From the NCBI GenBank assembly GCA_036405415.1, contig DASWXP010000002.1:340803-404802 (forward strand): a stretch of DNA of 64,000 nucleotides, in the 5' to 3' direction. A program made the position numbers and the translations under genes. Every line of letters starts with the position of its first letter. Positions within the stretch are counted from its first letter, which is position 1. Shown piece by piece: positions 1 to 58,772 of the stretch. Source of the DNA: Minisyncoccota bacterium. Lineage in GTDB: Bacteria > Patescibacteriota > Minisyncoccia > Phycocordibacterales > Phycocordibacteraceae. Below the pieces are notes generated by a model, which worked only from the letters and a program-made list of their open reading frames with translations, had not been told where the DNA came from and ran no database searches.

Positions 1-686
1 TTTGCCTCAGCGAGACGCTTGTCCTCCTCGATCCTGAAGAGTTTCGCGCGCACTAGATCCATAGCCTTCTCGCGGTTGGCCTGCTGGCTGCGTTCTGAAG
101 ACACATGCGCTGACACCCCTGAAGGCGTATGCGTGATACGGACCGCAGTCTCCCGCTTGTTTACGTTCTGGCCGCCAGCGCCGCCTGAGCGCGCGAACTG
201 AATATCCAGGTCGTCAGGCGCAAGGACTATCTCCTCGTTCCCTGAGAGCACCGGCAACACCTCGACCAGCGCGAACGAAGTCTGGCGCTTGGCGTTCGCA
301 TTGAACGGCGAGATGCGCACCAGGCGGTGCACCCCGGCCTCATTCTTCAGCCTTCCGTACGCTCCTTTCCCTGAAACCTCAATAAGCACGTTGCGGAAAC
401 CGCCATGATCGTTCTCGTTGGCATGCAGTTCCCACGTATCCCACCCCTGGCTCGACGCATATCCCTCGTACATCCTGCGGAGCATGCGCGCGAAATCCTC
501 CGCGTCGTCACCTCCGGCTCCGGCAAGGATACCTATCGTTGCGGACCCTGCGTCATGCCCGTCTCCTGATCCTCCTTCTTTCAGGTTCTGATACTCGTGG
601 ATCACGCGCTGCGCGCTTACAGGGTCCTTCCAGAAATCCGGAGAGGCCATCAAAGCCTCGATCTCTGCGATGCGGTCCTCAGACAT
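1..686 (-). CDS. prfB: peptide chain release factor 2 (C-terminal part runs off the window edge; ATG at 686)
   Basis: Minus-strand reading frame open to position 1. Translation shows the GGQ loop (SGGAGGQNVNK), the SPF tripeptide typical of RF2 (RLVRISPFNANAKRQTSF) and a GAGGDDAEDFARMLRRMY block. An in-frame stop lies 7 codons upstream of the ATG at 686, and there is no CTTTGAC frameshift site. Confidence 0.8.
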   Translation of the reverse strand, partial: MSEDRIAEIEALMASPDFWKDPVSAQRVIHEYQNLKEGGSGDGHDAGSATIGILAGAGGDDAEDFARMLRRMYEGYASSQGWDTWELHANENDHGGFRNVLIEVSGKGAYGRLKNEAGVHRLVRISPFNANAKRQTSFALVEVLPVLSGNEEIVLAPDDLDIQFARSGGAGGQNVNKRETAVRITHTPSGVSAHVSSERSQQANREKAMDLVRAKLFRIEEDKRLAEA

Positions 687-711
687 AGGACGAGTGTACC
701 CTACCTAAGGA

Positions 712-749
712 CGAAGCGCCTGCGGAACTAGAGTTCCGCAGGCGCTTCG
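712..749. terminator. perfect 16-bp-stem hairpin (gaagcgcctgcggaac-taga-gttccgcaggcgcttc) between tRNA-Thr and the prfB start
   Basis: Inverted repeat read directly from the sequence; GC-rich stem. It sits immediately 3-prime of the minus-strand tRNA. Confidence 0.5.
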
Positions 750-752
750 CGC

Positions 753-828
753 TGGAGCCACCGGCCAGGATTGAACTGGCGACCTTTTCGTTACGAGTGA
801 AATGCTCTACCAACTGAGCTACGGTGGC
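753..828 (-). tRNA. tRNA-Thr (anticodon CGU), CCA encoded
   Basis: The reverse complement folds as a cloverleaf: 7-bp acceptor GCCACCG/CGGTGGC, D-arm GCTCAGTTGGTAGAGC, anticodon loop CTCGTAA, T-arm GGTCGCCAGTTCAATCCTGGC, then TCCA. Confidence 0.8.
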
Positions 829-863
829 GGTCCCGTCTACCATAGCGGGAAACGCGCTCCGGT

Positions 864-1481
864 TCAAGACTTCGGCTTCCAGAGCAGGCTCGCAGCAAGC
901 GCGCCGATAATAGCGCCGAGGAAGTTAACCGTAAGGTCGACCGCGGTGTTGTAGTACCCGCCGACATTCGAGTCCGGGACCGAGAGCTTGGCAGCGAACT
1001 CGATGATCTCGTTGATCGCCCCCATACCCATGGAAGCGAGGACCGCGAACACGAAGAGGCCGAACGCATGGAACCTACTGTCACGCCTCAAGAAGAAATA
1101 TGAAAGCACGCTCGCAACCAGCGATCCGTACGTATGCACGATCTGGTCGAACTTAATGAAGGTTAGGCCGGTCGGGTTCTCAATATAGACCGGCACGTAG
1201 TTGTACAGCACGTCGCCGTTAACGAGCACTGCTGCCCCGAGCATGTGCAACAGCCCAACGGAGGACAACATCCATAAAAGCCACGCCGGAACGCATTGAT
1301 GCGAGAGGACGCAGCCGCCAAGGATGACGAGCAGCACGATAACGGCTATGTATCCGAGGAATTCGCTGTTCCCTATGGAAACGAAATGGAACGCGGCGAA
1401 TACGGTGTAGAGGACGGTGAACAAGAGCGGCAGGAGGCGCGAGAGCGTGAGGTTCTCGAGCGAGGTTCGTATGAATTGCAT
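864..1481 (-). CDS. integral membrane protein, function unknown
   Basis: ORF 864..1688; the start was chosen at the internal ATG (MQFIRTS...) because upstream codons overlap a terminator hairpin. Multiple hydrophobic helices (LLPLLFTVLYTVFAAF, IAVIVLLVILGG, FGLFVFAVLASMGMG). Confidence 0.55.
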   Translation of the reverse strand: MQFIRTSLENLTLSRLLPLLFTVLYTVFAAFHFVSIGNSEFLGYIAVIVLLVILGGCVLSHQCVPAWLLWMLSSVGLLHMLGAAVLVNGDVLYNYVPVYIENPTGLTFIKFDQIVHTYGSLVASVLSYFFLRRDSRFHAFGLFVFAVLASMGMGAINEIIEFAAKLSVPDSNVGGYYNTAVDLTVNFLGAIIGALAASLLWKPKS

Positions 1482-1523
1482 GACGTGAAGATACCGATAC
1501 CTACATGAAGAGTTCATAAAGCA

Positions 1524-1547
1524 AAAGGGCGCGGTATGGTCCGCGCC
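1524..1547. terminator. hairpin gggcgcgg-tatggt-ccgcgccc
   Basis: 8-bp GC stem located 3-prime of the small ORF 1564..1743 on the minus strand. Confidence 0.4.
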
Positions 1548-1563
1548 CTCGAAAGCTTCTGCT

Positions 1564-1743
1564 TTATGGTCGATCATCGCGAGGATGACTGCCGTCCTGG
1601 TAGAGGTCGTCACCGGGGCGCGTGCGCGAGTCCGGCTGGTAGTCGTCCGGACGCGCATGACCCATGGTCCTGGGCTTGATCTCGCCAACGGAATGTTGTC
1701 CCGTCGGATCAGACCCGTCCCAGGTGTTTGTCGTCTCGGTCAT
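1564..1743 (-). CDS. small hydrophilic Asp/Pro/Arg-rich protein (59 aa), hypothetical
   Basis: ATG at 1743 is preceded by a strong GGGAGG Shine-Dalgarno sequence (ctgagggaggatttctgATG). Low-complexity composition, so coding is uncertain. Confidence 0.35.
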   Translation of the reverse strand: MTETTNTWDGSDPTGQHSVGEIKPRTMGHARPDDYQPDSRTRPGDDLYQDGSHPRDDRP

Positions 1744-1858
1744 CAGAAATCCTCCCTCAGGATCTGGTTGGAACAAAAATCAGGCTTCGCATTGCTGCGA
1801 AGCCACCACTCTCGCCCGTATCCGCCCTTTTGTAAAGCGGTGTTGTGCACTGTGTCGG

Positions 1859-1931
1859 AGCCGATGCCCGGGATTGAACCGGGGACCTCGTCCTTACCAT
1901 GGACGCGCTCTACCGACTGAGCTACATCGGC
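1859..1931 (-). tRNA. tRNA-Thr (anticodon GGU)
   Basis: The reverse complement gives GCCGATG acceptor, GCTCAGTCGGTAGAGC D-arm, anticodon stem CGTCC/GGACG with loop ATGGTAA, and T-arm CCCGGTTCAATCCCGGG. No CCA is encoded. Confidence 0.8.
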
Positions 1932-2040
1932 AATGTCCGCCGGAGCGGACTTTCTGAGAGTACGGCATTTCTCTCTGGTTTTCAACCGAAGGCAGCCCAC
2001 TTCACGATCCGTTCCGAAACCGCCCTGTACCATATATGGA

Positions 2041-2772
2041 ATGCAGATACGAATAGTGGTTGCGAACATCCAGTCGGGCATCGGCGTGACCAGAGGGTAC
2101 CGGCAGTACCTCACGAGCAGCTGGCGGTATATCCTCCCGCATGACGGTCCCGGGGCGCTCGGCGCAGGAGCGTTTCTGCGCGCGGAAGACGCTGATGTCG
2201 CGCTTCTCACAGAAGTCGACGCGGGTTCTCGCAGGTCGCGCGGCATCTCGCAGATCGATGCGATCGCTCTTGAAGCAGGACTCTCGCATGCCCGGTTCTT
2301 CCCTACGAGAAGCGTGGGAACCTCAATCAACGAAGGGAACGCGGTGCTGTCCCGCTTCCCTATCCTCAGCACTAGGACGCACCCACTCAAGAGCGGCGTG
2401 AACCCGAGAGTGCTTGGAGAAGCGATCATCAACGCAGGTGGCACACCGCTTACCGTGCTGGTCGCGCATCTTGCGCTCGGTACGCGCCTGCGCGAGTCGC
2501 AGATCGCGGAGATCGCCGCGCGCGTGAAGGAAGTCGAGGGGCCGCTCATACTCGGCGGCGACTTCAACGAGCGGGACCAGAGCGCCTTCAGGCTCCTGCT
2601 ACAAGCCGGTCTTGCTTCGGTTGCAGTGCCGAGCTACCCCTCCTGGAAGCCGCGCCATGCGCTCCAGATGCTCTTCCATACGAGAGACATACGCATCGAG
2701 AGCGCGGCCGTGCCTCCGGATTCTCGCTTCTCGGACCACCTCCCGCTTATCGTAGCGGCAGCACTGGATTGA
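2041..2772 (+). CDS. endonuclease/exonuclease/phosphatase (EEP) family protein
   Basis: ORF 1933..2772 trimmed to the ATG at 2041 (MQIRIVVANIQ). It carries the GDFNE and SDHLPL motifs characteristic of the EEP fold. Confidence 0.6.
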   Translation: MQIRIVVANIQSGIGVTRGYRQYLTSSWRYILPHDGPGALGAGAFLRAEDADVALLTEVDAGSRRSRGISQIDAIALEAGLSHARFFPTRSVGTSINEGNAVLSRFPILSTRTHPLKSGVNPRVLGEAIINAGGTPLTVLVAHLALGTRLRESQIAEIAARVKEVEGPLILGGDFNERDQSAFRLLLQAGLASVAVPSYPSWKPRHALQMLFHTRDIRIESAAVPPDSRFSDHLPLIVAAALD

Positions 2773-2841
2773 AGTGCTTACGAACGAGAACTCAACTGGC
2801 ACAAAGCACAAAACCGCCCTTCCGGACGGTTTCGTGACGTG

Positions 2842-2915
2842 CGCGGTCGACGAGACTTGAACTCGCAACCTCCCGCGTGACAGGCGGGTGCTCTAACCAG
2901 TTGAGCTACGACCGC
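2842..2915 (-). tRNA. tRNA-Asp (anticodon GUC)
   Basis: The reverse complement gives GCGGTCG acceptor, GCTCAACTGGTTAGAGC D-arm, anticodon loop CTGTCAC, and T-arm GCGAGTTCAAGTCTCGT. Confidence 0.8.
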
Positions 2916-2965
2916 AAACAGCGCACGAGTCGAAATATAGCCTGTTTATAGGCTATACACAACCC

Positions 2966-3042
2966 TGGTGTCGGGGGTGGGGAATGATCCCACGACCTTA
3001 GCGTTATGAGTGCTACGCTCTAACCAACTGAGCTACCCCGAC
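2966..3042 (-). tRNA. tRNA with CAU anticodon (elongator Met or lysidine-type Ile2), CCA encoded
   Basis: The reverse complement gives GTCGGGG acceptor paired with CCCCGAC, anticodon loop CTCATAA, then ACCA. Positions 1:72 are paired and the anticodon stem is not GC-triplet, so this is not an initiator. Confidence 0.7.
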
Positions 3043-3076
3043 AATACACGCACCATACTATATGGAGCGCAGCGGT

Positions 3077-3772
3077 TCAACGGCCGCTTGAGAGGATTTC
3101 CTCTGCTTTAGCGAGGTCCTCCGGCGCCGTTATCTGGATCCACGACGTGGCCGGCACGGCCCAGAGCGGAATCCCACTTTCCTTGGAGGCAGCGAGTACC
3201 GTCTGTGGCAAGCCGTACTCGTCGCTCCCTTCCGCTTTCGGAACCATTGGATAGTCAAAGACGCGGGGATCAAGCGCGAGCATGTTCGTATTCATAAGAC
3301 CTGGCTTGCCCCGATGATCCCCTTCCTCGATAGCGACGATATGCCCGGTATCGTCCATCACCATGCGGCCTCCTGAGCCCATCTGCTCTGTCTCTTCGAC
3401 AAGCACGCTCCAGTCCGGGGAACGAAGACAGGTCTCGACATCCTCGCGCGCGTAGAGGTCGTCCCCCATCATCACCACGAACCGGTCCGTGAGGTACGGC
3501 TTCGCGAGCGCGAGCGCGCCCATGGTCCCATCCAGGTTCTCCTGCACGGCATAGCGGATGGTTCTTCCCTCGAACGAACCTCCGAATGCGCTCCGGATAA
3601 CGTCGCCCTGGTAGCCGACGACAATGATGACCTCGTCGACCTCTGGCGGAAGCGCATCAAGCTTATGCTCGATGAGCGACTTCCCGTGCACAGTAAGCAT
3701 GGGCTTCGGAACGGAATCCGTAAGCTCCTTCATGCGAGTGCCGCGGCCTGCGGCGAGAATGACAGCTTGCAT
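3077..3772 (-). CDS. sugar-phosphate nucleotidyltransferase (NTP-transferase family)
   Basis: N-terminal signature MQAVILAAGRGTRM (G-x-G-T-R), typical of glucose-1-P thymidylyl/uridylyltransferases; 231 aa. Confidence 0.75.
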   Translation of the reverse strand: MQAVILAAGRGTRMKELTDSVPKPMLTVHGKSLIEHKLDALPPEVDEVIIVVGYQGDVIRSAFGGSFEGRTIRYAVQENLDGTMGALALAKPYLTDRFVVMMGDDLYAREDVETCLRSPDWSVLVEETEQMGSGGRMVMDDTGHIVAIEEGDHRGKPGLMNTNMLALDPRVFDYPMVPKAEGSDEYGLPQTVLAASKESGIPLWAVPATSWIQITAPEDLAKAEEILSSGR

Positions 3773-41893: not shown

Positions 41894-41970
41894 CCACCCT
41901 TAGCTCAGTTGGTTAGAGCGCGGAGCTTATACCTCCGTGGTCCTTGGTTCGAGTCCAAGAGGGTGGACCA
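41894..41970 (+). tRNA. tRNA with UAU anticodon (tRNA-Ile reading AUA), CCA encoded
   Basis: CCACCCT acceptor paired with AGGGTGG, D-arm GCTCAGTTGGTTAGAGC, anticodon stem CGGAG/CTCCG with loop CTTATAC (U33, A37), T-arm CTTGGTTCGAGTCCAAG, then ACCA. Confidence 0.65.
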
Positions 41971-44998: not shown

Positions 44999-45407
44999 GG
45001 GGGTGACCGGCTTTGACGGTCCTGTACCTTGAGAGACGTGCGACGCGGTGGAAGTGTGCTGACCACCTAAAAACGTACACAAAAATACTTGCAAAGAACA
45101 CTCTTGCAAGCGTGAAGTCTCCGTTCACCATGAACGACTTCGCGTTCGCTTACGTACGGACGGCTTAAGCCTCCTCGCCTAAGCGACGTTCGTACTTCCC
45201 CGTTCCTTCAGGGGGAAGTACGGGCGGAATCTTCTGAAGGATAGGTATCTGCGCTCTCCCAGGCGCAGACTGAAGCGACGGGATCAGGTAGAGGCGTTTT
45301 CGTTACCGTTCCTATTCCTCTACTGAATTGCTAACGGTAACTACGCGTCGTAGACTCGCTCTTGAGACGGGATTCGGACCGGAGTTCGACTCTCCGCACC
45401 TCCACAT
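44999..45407 (+). ncRNA. ssrA: tmRNA (transfer-messenger RNA)
   Basis: Lies directly downstream of smpB. The 5-prime end GGGGGUGACCGGCUUUGACGG resembles the tmRNA consensus. The 3-prime T-arm CGGAGTTCGACTCTCCG and acceptor CACCTCC pair with the 5-prime GGGGGTG, including the G3-U70 alanine identity pair. Followed by a strong terminator. A candidate tag reading frame ends at TAA 45166-45168. Confidence 0.7.
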
Positions 45408-57392: not shown

Positions 57393-57662
57393 CTACCAGG
57401 AAGCCTTCTTAACGCCCGGGATCTTGCCCTCGCGCGCGAGCTCGCGGAACGCGATGCGGGAGAGGCCAAAATCGCGCATGAATCCGCGCTGGCGGCCGGT
57501 GATGGCGCAGCGGTTCTTGATGCGGACCGGGCTTGAATTCTTCGGAAGCTTCTGGAGGCCCTCATAATCGCCAGCAGCCTTAAGCTCAGCACGCTTGGCA
57601 GCGTACTTGGCCGCAAGCTTAATGCGGCGCTCGTTCTTTGCGATTGATGAGGTCTTGGCCAT
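57393..57662 (-). CDS. rpsN: 30S ribosomal protein S14 (long, non-zinc type)
   Basis: 89 aa ending ...[18 protein letters not shown]. Confidence 0.85.
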
Positions 57663-57733
57663 AAGAAAAATAAGCTCCGGGGAGCCGTGGAAGTAATCTA
57701 TCAGTCAGGAAGTAGGCTGTCAAATCAATGAAG

Positions 57734-57790
57734 GCTCCTTTCTTAGGAGCTGAGATACAACTCGGGGGCCCGCAACCAAATGCGGGCCCC
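57734..57790. terminator. two hairpins (gctcct-ttctt-aggagc and ggggcccgca-accaaa-tgcgggcccc) between the inserted ORF and rpsN
   Basis: A perfect 10-bp GC stem at 57765-57790 and a 6-bp stem at 57734-57750, 3-prime of ORF 57801..58130 on the minus strand. Confidence 0.45.
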
Positions 57791-57800
57791 AGGGCAGTAT

Positions 57801-58130
57801 CTATTTCCAGCTGACGAGCATTCTAAGGCGTCGCGGGTTCTCGATCGGCACGTCCGGTTGTACGAAATACACCGTTAAATCGCCCAGTATCTCCGCTATG
57901 GCCCGTTGAGCCATTCTGTCCTCTGCTAGGAACGGAGTAACGATTTCTACCTTAAAAGCACGGCTTCCAGCAGCCTCCATGAGGATCGGCTGCCAATACA
58001 TTTCGCACTCGTAGTAAATGCGCTTGTAGAGCCGACTCATCTTGAGGGAACGCTCGACTGCCCTCCTCTTGTGTCCAGCTTTCTGTACTTGGCGACCGTG
58101 GGCGCCGAGAGGTAATCTTAGATCTCGCAT
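57801..58130 (-). CDS. hypothetical protein inserted between rplE and rpsN (lower-GC island)
   Basis: Start at ATG 58130, preceded by a perfect AGGAGG Shine-Dalgarno sequence; 109 aa with a basic N-terminus and an acidic C-terminus. The TTG at 58199 used by the ORF track overlaps the upstream terminator stem. Local GC is about 52%. Confidence 0.45.
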   Translation of the reverse strand: MRDLRLPLGAHGRQVQKAGHKRRAVERSLKMSRLYKRIYYECEMYWQPILMEAAGSRAFKVEIVTPFLAEDRMAQRAIAEILGDLTVYFVQPDVPIENPRRLRMLVSWK

Positions 58131-58197
58131 CGGCACCTCCTTCTGAGAATCCAGATTGGGTATACCACTGACACATCTAAGTGTCGATATTAAATGC

Positions 58198-58222
58198 AAA
58201 AGACCCGCATCGCGGGTCTTTT
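58198..58222 (-). terminator. intrinsic terminator aaaagacccgc-atc-gcgggtctttt after rplE
   Basis: Perfect 11-bp stem directly 3-prime of the rplE stop (58239), inside the ribosomal-protein operon. Confidence 0.65.
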
Positions 58223-58238
58223 GCTTAGAACGTAAATA

Positions 58239-58772
58239 CTAGTCCTTCTTGAACGGAATGCCGAGGTGGCGGAAGAACGCATCTGCCTCCTCCTTGGTCT
58301 TCGCGGTGGTCACGAGGGTGATCGCAAGGCCGAATACGTCCTTGAGGTCCTCGTCTGCGGTCTCAGGAAAGATCGTGTGATCCTTGATTCCGATAGTGAG
58401 GTTGCCCATCTCATCGATCGCGGTCGCGTTAAGGCCGCGGAAGTCGCGGGTACGCGGAAGCGTGATGTGGATGAGCTTGTCGAGGAACTCGCGCATGCGC
58501 TCTCCGCGAAGCGTCACCTGGTAGCCGATTATCTCGCCCTGGCGCATCTTGAACTGCGCGATGGACTGCTTGGACGCGCGAGGCGCTGCCTTCTGGCCCG
58601 TGATGCGGGCGAGGCGGTCCTCAACGAGCGCCTTCTTGGTCTTGTCTGCCTTACCGACGCCGGAAGATACGACGATCTTAAGGAGACGCGGGGACGCGTT
58701 CACGTTGGTGTAGCCGAACTGCTCCTTGAGAGTGTCGAATGCACCGGCGAGCTTTTCTTTGGTCATCATCAT
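58239..58772 (-). CDS. rplE: 50S ribosomal protein L5
   Basis: 177 aa with conserved L5 blocks (NVMQVPRLEKIVVNMGVG-like: SPRLLKIVVSSGVG). Confidence 0.85.
   Translation of the reverse strand: MMMTKEKLAGAFDTLKEQFGYTNVNASPRLLKIVVSSGVGKADKTKKALVEDRLARITGQKAAPRASKQSIAQFKMRQGEIIGYQVTLRGERMREFLDKLIHITLPRTRDFRGLNATAIDEMGNLTIGIKDHTIFPETADEDLKDVFGLAITLVTTAKTKEEADAFFRHLGIPFKKD

Follow-up and report, generated by a model that had tools for sequence, protein, structure and literature searches.

The S10-spc-alpha cluster of ribosomal-protein genes is the textbook case of gene order resisting change, and its genes are standard markers for phylogenies of the candidate phyla radiation (CPR) and for binning of metagenome-assembled genomes (MAGs). 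Chromosomal hotspots of accessory-gene turnover between conserved core genes are a general concept of comparative genomics. The subject here is a gap between rplE and rpsN in this cluster, together with the small gene that fills it (ORF109), in a 64,000-nt stretch of a Candidatus Paceibacterota (CPR) MAG (GCA_036405415.1, contig DASWXP010000002.1, positions 340,803 to 404,802). This stretch is called the window, and its own numbering is used for all coordinates. In the canonical cluster of the E. coli and Bacilli type, rplE-rpsN is an internal, contiguous operon junction (Brandis 2021, PMC8046335). Most insertions that this study analysed in detail are located between operons, one is within rpoBC, and in S. 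pneumoniae rpsN isoforms are replaced by recombination within rplE-rpsN-rpsH (PMC8046335). The window shares with the canonical cluster the order rplN-rplX-rplE-rpsN-rpsH-rplF-rplR-rpsE and the tight packing of every other junction, but it differs in having a predicted terminator, a variable gene, and a predicted dedicated promoter within what elsewhere is the spc operon, an arrangement that extends across the whole clade.

All genes of the locus lie on the minus strand. rplN (59514-59137), rplX (59125-58784), and rplE (58239-58772; uL5, 177 aa; Pfam Ribosomal_L5 and L5_C, E=3e-30) are followed by a 576-nt spacer and then by rpsN (57393-57662; uS14 in the long 89-aa form; Pfam Ribosomal_S14, E=3e-29), rpsH, rplF, rplR, and rpsE. 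rplE and rpsN are the conserved left and right anchors of the slot, and the other junctions of the ribosomal cluster in the window are all 12 nt or shorter. The GC content of the spacer is 0.51 vs 0.60 in the flanks, with sliding-window values of 0.50-0.53 across the spacer vs 0.59-0.64 in the flanks; the features described in an earlier note on this DNA, made from the sequence alone, are all present, and the note had the direction of this dip right and slightly overstated its size (52 vs 63%). The stretch from rplE to ORF109 is 100% identical in four independent Logan contigs from separate runs (SRR11449183-188), and the junction is therefore not an assembly chimera. Because all four contigs match the window exactly, they supply no strain variants of ORF109.

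The junction was compared with that of related loci (numbered with the prefix L), of which 80 were obtained from species representatives via the rplE product, 15 from metagenomes via a DNA pattern, and a few via protein look-up. Gap statistics refer to the 75 loci with both rplE and rpsN, and the near clade consists of 34 loci, all with the 89-aa S14. The rplE-rpsN gap had a median of 726 nt (range 36-3540) and was at least 200 nt in 71 of the 75 loci. Median gaps at the other junctions of the same loci were 11 nt (L14-L24), 10 nt (L24-L5), -7 nt (S14-S8), and 9 nt (S8-L6). Interruption is the rule in this lineage and is specific to the rplE-rpsN junction. The earlier note had taken the L5-S14 junction to be normally uninterrupted and had suggested a survey of the spacer in related genomes; that premise is correct for well-studied bacteria, but with 71 related loci interrupted it fails here, and the window is not unique. 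In the near clade, at least one plus-strand open reading frame (ORF) is present in the slot in 32 of the 34 loci, and the two empty slots are those of L017 (68 nt) and L046 (157 nt). No earlier description of an rplE-rpsN interruption in CPR bacteria was found in the literature searched.

The contents of the slot change between close relatives at sharp breakpoints. In the pairs L002/L087, L003/L006, L004/L006, L004/L003, L005/L092, and WIN/L086 (WIN being the window), the flanks are 90-96% identical at the nucleotide level, and a middle part of ~450-1100 nt cannot be aligned (blastn, word size 11). Homology is lost within ~10-60 nt after the rplE stop codon and is back ~70-100 nt before the rpsN ATG. 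BLASTP clustering of the plus-strand ORFs in the 32 occupied near-clade slots resulted in 5 small multi-member families and 23 singletons. The same flanks thus enclose differing content (>20 unrelated ORF groups in 32 near-clade loci) with abrupt loss of homology at defined edges, as is found at core-gene-flanked accessory-gene hotspots. The occupants include putative lipoproteins or signal-peptide proteins, a membrane protein, NADAR (PF08719, E=2e-31), an HlyIII-like protein, and many orphans; pyrE/pyrF-like occupants were assigned by eye. They are under purifying selection, with a ratio of nonsynonymous to synonymous substitution rates (dN/dS) of 0.06-0.30 in six pairs. In a tree of six concatenated ribosomal proteins, occupant families B, C, and E follow clades, and the shallow clade around the window is mixed, with L003 and L006 nested among carriers of family A. 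L002 (family D) and L087 have near-identical ribosomal proteins and unrelated slot genes. Family D is found again in L086, the nearest relative of the window (90.5% ribosomal-protein identity), and since L086 carries this family instead, ORF109 replaced a different occupant, or was gained after the loss of one, since the L086 split.

Both edges of the slot carry predicted transcription signals. T1 (58196-58224, minus strand), a putative intrinsic (Rho-independent) terminator on the sense strand after the rplE stop codon, would close an rplN-rplX-rplE unit. Its stem of 13 perfect pairs (58224-58212 with 58208-58196) has a GAU loop and is followed by the U-rich tail AUUUAAUAU; the free energy is -23.4 kcal/mol (z = -6.9), and an equally good fold was obtained in 0 of 200 shuffles. 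A GC hairpin with a T run is also found 3' of rplE in near-clade relatives with a cassette, and in L017, which has no cassette, rplE is without a terminator hairpin. Besides a terminator directly after rplE, the earlier note had listed two further hairpins before rpsN, and both are present. T2 (57765-57790, minus strand), just past the ORF109 stop codon, is a strong GC hairpin with a 10-bp stem and no U tract (-27.5 kcal/mol, z = -4.5), and relatives carry a hairpin at the equivalent relative position. The other (57734-57750, minus strand) is a marginal hairpin of 6 bp (GCUCCU/AGGAGC) with the U-rich tract CUUCAUUGAUUU after it; it folds weakly (-9.1 kcal/mol, z = -2.0) and sits at the edge of the segment that cannot be aligned with relatives.

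The right edge holds a predicted sigma-70 promoter of the extended -10 type before rpsN (57695-57723, minus strand), consisting of TTGACA, a 17-nt spacer, and TG-A-TAGATT, with 10 of 12 scanner positions matched plus the TG. The pattern TTGACA-N14-TGATA[GC]A[TG]T is present in 34 of 34 near-clade loci, with -10 positions 3 and 5 and the spacer bases as the only variable sites, as is expected of a sigma-70 extended -10 promoter and not of an RNA structure. Only the final 62-72 nt of the window spacer can be aligned with relatives, at 78-92% identity for most, and the conserved block consists of TTGACA, 17 nt, TG-A-TAGATT, ~7 nt, GGCUC-CCCG-GAGCU, a U-rich stretch, and the ATG. In L017 this block directly follows rplE. 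The rpsN leader (57663-57694, minus strand), whose sequence is conserved across the near clade, holds a 5-bp hairpin (57686-57673) that contains GGAG, and then a U-rich stretch up to the ATG. The hairpin folds weakly (-5.5 kcal/mol, z = -1.1) and has no informative covariation, and an Rfam search of the spacer gave no match. A conserved structured leader RNA, the alternative that the earlier note had set against its own reading, does not apply, as only the last ~70 nt are conserved and these hold the promoter and the 5-bp hairpin; the covariation and conserved body of a structured ribosomal-protein leader are both missing from the spacer. These predicted signals lead us to regard the rplE|rpsN junction as an operon boundary that this clade has conserved.

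Some details of the leader stand apart from this argument. The sole GGAG upstream of rpsN lies in the 3' arm of the leader hairpin, 12 nt before the ATG, and this is the same in the 34 loci. In a transcript starting at the predicted rpsN promoter, the hairpin would be close to the 5' end, where it may act as an operator of translation or stabilise the mRNA. Three Logan contigs end exactly inside it, at 57676. In L007 and L016 (also L084), an extra ~80-110 nt with strong internal complementarity lies between the leader hairpin and the ATG, which places the promoter 111-115 nt upstream of the rpsN ATG instead of ~30 nt; a small repeat that was inserted, or an additional structure of the leader, could account for the segment.

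ORF109 (57801-58130, minus strand) runs from an ATG at 58130 to a stop codon at 57803-57801 and encodes an orphan protein of 109 aa. As the earlier note had pointed out, it has a strong ribosome-binding site, read here as the Shine-Dalgarno (SD) sequence AAGGAGG (58136-58142, minus strand) 5 nt before the ATG. The NCBI annotation has only a 79-aa version starting from an internal Met without an SD, and the 109-aa form was obtained in an independent gene call on the Logan contigs. By codon log-likelihood, the ORF109 frame is the best of six (+0.04 vs -0.17 to -0.75 bits per codon), and its GC1/2/3 of 0.60/0.40/0.59 has a shape typical for coding sequence. The view that it is a real protein-coding gene outside the ancestral ribosomal cluster is supported. 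The closest relatives carry different genes at this place, and ORF109 is bracketed by the predicted terminator and the hairpins. Our verdict is that ORF109 is a real gene, an orphan that is probably functional, in a slot for accessory genes found throughout the clade.

ORF109 is predicted to encode a small protein of the cytoplasm, in which a very basic N-terminus, disordered or helical, precedes an acidic domain of alpha-beta-alpha-beta-beta order. The isoelectric point (pI) is 11.6 for residues 1-40, 5.0 for residues 41-109, and 10.1 for the whole protein, which bears out the basic N-terminus and acidic C-terminus described before. Structure prediction, also proposed in the earlier note, was done with single-sequence AlphaFold2 and gave a confident alpha/beta domain (residues 30-109) with a predicted local distance difference test (pLDDT) of ~80 for these residues and a predicted template modelling score (pTM) of 0.61. 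The modelled topology is H22-54, E59-68, H72-81, E86-90, and E101-108 behind a disordered basic tail. No significant fold relative was found in any database searched. Pfam, PHROGs, NCBIfam, and PADLOC gave nothing significant for ORF109 (best DUF7676, E=0.07), and a word-indexed search of 5.8 billion proteins and an exhaustive phmmer search of 1.84 billion representatives each returned ORF109 itself only. Nothing was found in JGI metagenomes, IMG/VR, phages and plasmids (tblastn), or PDB sequences.

One slot protein from another species, L006, and its 90%-identical relative P0003 (121 aa, unannotated) resemble ORF109. hhalign aligned ORF109 with them over 71 columns at 32% identity (P=0.009), reaching both C-termini, with an overall identity of 24-32%. 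The motifs LM[ED]AA..SRAF and C-terminal [LM]VSW are common to them in the same order, the local alignment has z=3.1 against shuffles, and ORF109 ranked 6th of 4101 ORFs in a leave-one-out hidden Markov model search. The two proteins occupy the same slot in the same orientation, with the same predicted helix-strand-helix-strand-strand order and the same basic-N/acidic-C split. The L006/L100 pair has a dN/dS of 0.13 with dS similar to that of the flanks, and the low ratio indicates that the L006 family encodes a real protein. The cassette DNA of L006 cannot be aligned with the window, and the part of its promoter block that aligns is ~89% identical. P0003/L006 is a probable distant homologue of ORF109, graded as probable and not as proven because BLASTP alone is not significant (E=1.6), and ORF109 probably belongs to a fast-diverging family also present in the slot of another species. 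A wider family that would add L042b, L042c, P0002, P0004, and P0005 (LMxAA, C-terminal [IV]SW) is unproven and was not retained, with hhalign P=0.2-0.3 and L042b failing the leave-one-out search; the L042c and P0005 proteins also occupy the slot. Our best guess at a function for ORF109, a speculative one, is a strain-variable, possibly nucleic-acid-binding accessory factor outside ribosome synthesis.

The explanation we favour, and regard as fairly probable, is that ORF109 currently fills an accessory-gene slot shared by the lineage, and that this slot is a hotspot of recombination where two operons meet and not the site of a one-off selfish insertion. The rplE-rpsN junction would divide the ribosomal supercluster into one transcription unit that ends at the intrinsic terminator and another that starts at the conserved extended -10 promoter with its short, SD-containing leader hairpin. 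The gap between terminator and promoter would hold one (sometimes 2-4) co-oriented small genes that change from species to species, and recombination, with the conserved rplE and promoter-rpsN flanks as its anchors, would replace the segment. In the window, the slot would contain a monocistronic unit made up of the strong SD, the 109-aa ORF, and the 3' hairpins. Several observations weigh against this explanation or against parts of it. Recombination is inferred from breakpoints and distribution. Cassette dS (1.1-2.8) is mostly above the dS of the adjacent rpsN (0.3-0.5), which fits exchange of old alleles, and codon bias may hold rpsN dS down and partly explain the difference. The GC contents of cassette and flank are weakly correlated (r=0.28, p=0.12), and the origin of the cassettes is not settled by composition. 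The link to P0003/L006 is below conventional thresholds, the leave-one-out search giving E=0.44, and the homologue candidates were picked partly by eye. No convincing promoter was found before ORF109 by promoter scan or by reading; a weak candidate taken from the sequence (58159-58187, minus strand; TCGACA, 17-nt spacer, TGgTATACC) has a -10 element without the critical last T and falls short of the scanner thresholds. Among 32 near-clade cassettes, a clear sigma-70-like site is present in only 6 vs 3 expected by chance. The occupants would have to be transcribed beyond a strong terminator; for ORF109, transcription may arise by read-through of T1. The impression from a few loci that every cassette has its own promoter was dropped after this systematic scan.

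Also against the favoured explanation, and in keeping with an unlikely one in which the spacer is non-coding (terminator, promoter, and leader RNA) and the 109 codons are an untranslated chance ORF, are the low codon-usage score of ORF109 (0.04 vs a gene mean of 0.30), equalled or exceeded by 39% of decoy ORFs, and its lack of a close relative with which purifying selection on it could be measured. A chance ORF would also agree with the missing conservation in relatives, the 79-aa NCBI call, the lack of a clear promoter, and the readiness of high-GC DNA to yield long chance ORFs, of which the window has many antisense to genes and >100 aa. It is difficult to reconcile with an AAGGAGG at ideal spacing, the best of six frames with coding-type GC1>GC2, the pLDDT and pTM of an 80-residue alpha/beta domain, and the probable homologue of the same topology in the same slot under purifying selection. 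Other slot occupants are demonstrably constrained genes, and the spacer body has neither RNA conservation nor an Rfam match.

The slot as an accessory-gene hotspot could be taken further, as a dedicated hypervariable cassette locus in which ultra-conserved anchors and high transcription provide an expression platform for small proteins under rapid exchange, a large share of which would be secreted or on the cell surface and take part in the dealings of these episymbionts with hosts or phages, with ORF109/P0003 as a new fast-evolving, basic-tailed alpha/beta family under diversifying selection; this we regard as conceivable and rather doubtful. The earlier note had proposed a selfish insertion. 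On such a reading, a small element of the mobile or addiction type, for instance a toxin-like gene, would have entered a spc operon that was intact before, which we consider very improbable. Several features are as such an element might have them: no relative or searched database contains the gene, its GC is below that of the flanks, a strong SD and flanking hairpins come with it, and its protein is small and basic. But the spacer is merely 576 nt, with a single ORF of at least 100 aa that has no Pfam match, and no transposase, recombinase, terminal inverted repeats, or target-site duplication were found in it. The repeat search gave hairpins and 9-15 nt chance repeats, none at the insert edges, and the locus thus resembles neither a transposable element nor a miniature inverted-repeat element or insertion sequence. 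The toxin-like part of the proposal finds no match in PADLOC, Pfam, PHROG, or NCBIfam, which also leaves no toxin-antitoxin or anti-phage defence family, and there is no second gene as a possible antitoxin. Searches of phages, plasmids, and viral contigs brought up nothing similar, the same site is filled by ordinary unrelated genes in most relatives, and the framing terminator and promoter are conserved host features, not carried in by the insert. The GC dip does not settle a foreign origin either way: cassette GC departs from the flanks in both directions (-0.06 to +0.10), and the dip in the window is therefore not special. A regulatory insertion in the spc operon, the other half of that proposal, is unlikely because the slot genes of relatives are functionally unrelated. 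The least probable reading in our estimate is that of a ribosome-linked factor, with ORF109 as a ribosomal, assembly, or regulatory protein particular to this lineage, for instance an RNA-binding regulator of the rpsN unit, that would be kept beside its targets. Its position inside a ribosomal-protein cluster and its basic, ribosomal-protein-like N-terminal tail speak for such a role, for which conservation would be expected, yet the slot genes of relatives range from lipoproteins, NADAR, and pyrE/F-like genes to membrane proteins and a large number of orphans, the nearest relatives of the window are without ORF109, and the Arg-x3-His (R3H) motif is absent on reading its sequence.

Further observations concern the slot and its surroundings in relatives. 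L042 has tandem slot genes (spacer positions 988-1416 and 1549-1971), and similar ones are found in L096-L099; their products are ~130-142 aa and end in ...[IV]SW[RP].PKK. Genes of this type were found in 16 metagenome contigs, always directly 5' of rpsN and sometimes beside an antisense HlyIII-like gene, and they may be a second slot-specific family. A comparison of loci L026-L080 with L001-L025 shows that S14 alternates among related Paceibacteria between a long 89-aa and a short 61-aa form, and the promoter and leader architecture switches together with it, which suggests that rpsN itself has been exchanged at the junction.

A conserved stem-loop was found 20-320 nt upstream of rpsN in distant Paceibacteria, mostly those with the short 61-aa S14, and not in the window (L030, L032, L033, L035, L037-L040, L043, L045, L047, L048, L053, L054, L057, L060, L064, L066, L068, L074, and L079). 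It has the form GGGAG-uAA-GUCACC-aCAUCUA-GGUGAUAC-u-CUCC, often with GCCGGAUUAUUAG before it. In the alignment, 91% of the cells are paired, with compensatory changes in 8 of 11 pairs; neither the observed percentage of pairing nor the covariation score was reached by any of 500 shuffles, and slid controls pair at 36-44%. The invariant G-C, U-A, bulged A(U)AC, and AA...U agree with the core that S8 recognises in helix 21 of 16S rRNA (G597-C643, U641, A642, and A595/A596-U644; PMC4176348). The stem-loop looks like an S8 autoregulatory operator before rpsN-rpsH. It had no Rfam match at the gathering threshold, and a mimic of the S8 site was sought in the window and the near clade with none convincing.

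Two RNA genes lie elsewhere in the window. A tRNA-Ile with anticodon UAU is located at 41894-41970 (plus strand). Most bacteria read AUA with a lysidine-modified CAU tRNA, so that a UAU isoacceptor is uncommon; the gene may say something about AUA decoding in this lineage. A transfer-messenger RNA (tmRNA) gene, scoring 115.6 bits with Rfam, is located at 44999-45405 (plus strand). Its tag peptide, AKNTLASVKSPFTMNDFAFAYVRTA, is longer than is usual for tmRNA. Two low-scoring ORFs that overlap it are probably spurious.

The split between rplE and rpsN across a Paceibacterota lineage means that operon boundaries in the cluster are not universal. The conserved flanks could be used as primer or bait sites for strain-level accessory variation in uncultured CPR bacteria, and the locus will be described wrongly by annotation pipelines in which contiguity is assumed or the shorter ORF of 79 aa is called. 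The value of ORF109 itself is modest, being one more orphan small protein, made testable by a predicted fold and a probable homologue.

With the small nucleic-acid-binding domains of the R3H, Smr, and KhpB-YlmH types, ORF109 shares a predicted two-layer alpha/beta sandwich, a similar size, and a basic tail; neither a significant structural match nor a signature motif of an R3H or Smr-like domain was found in it. Integron cassettes are a poor fit, as no integrase lies between or beside rplE and rpsN, the neighbours are all ribosomal, and the hairpins on either side are GC terminator stems of the usual kind (no attC models were run). The rpsN replacement in S. pneumoniae involves recombination in the same three-gene neighbourhood, and the S14 form varies here too (89 or 61 aa), but there the ribosomal gene itself is exchanged, whereas here it is an extra, non-ribosomal neighbour. 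Accessory-gene hotspots have in common with this locus the shared core flanks, a content that differs in close relatives, abrupt homology edges, and no need for mobility genes. The slot differs from them in being very small (mostly one gene, 110-190 aa), in having occupants co-oriented with the ribosomal genes, and in lying inside the most conserved bacterial gene cluster, in reduced CPR genomes. The locus matches the known class of core-gene-flanked accessory-gene hotspots, and its interest lies mainly in the position of the hotspot.

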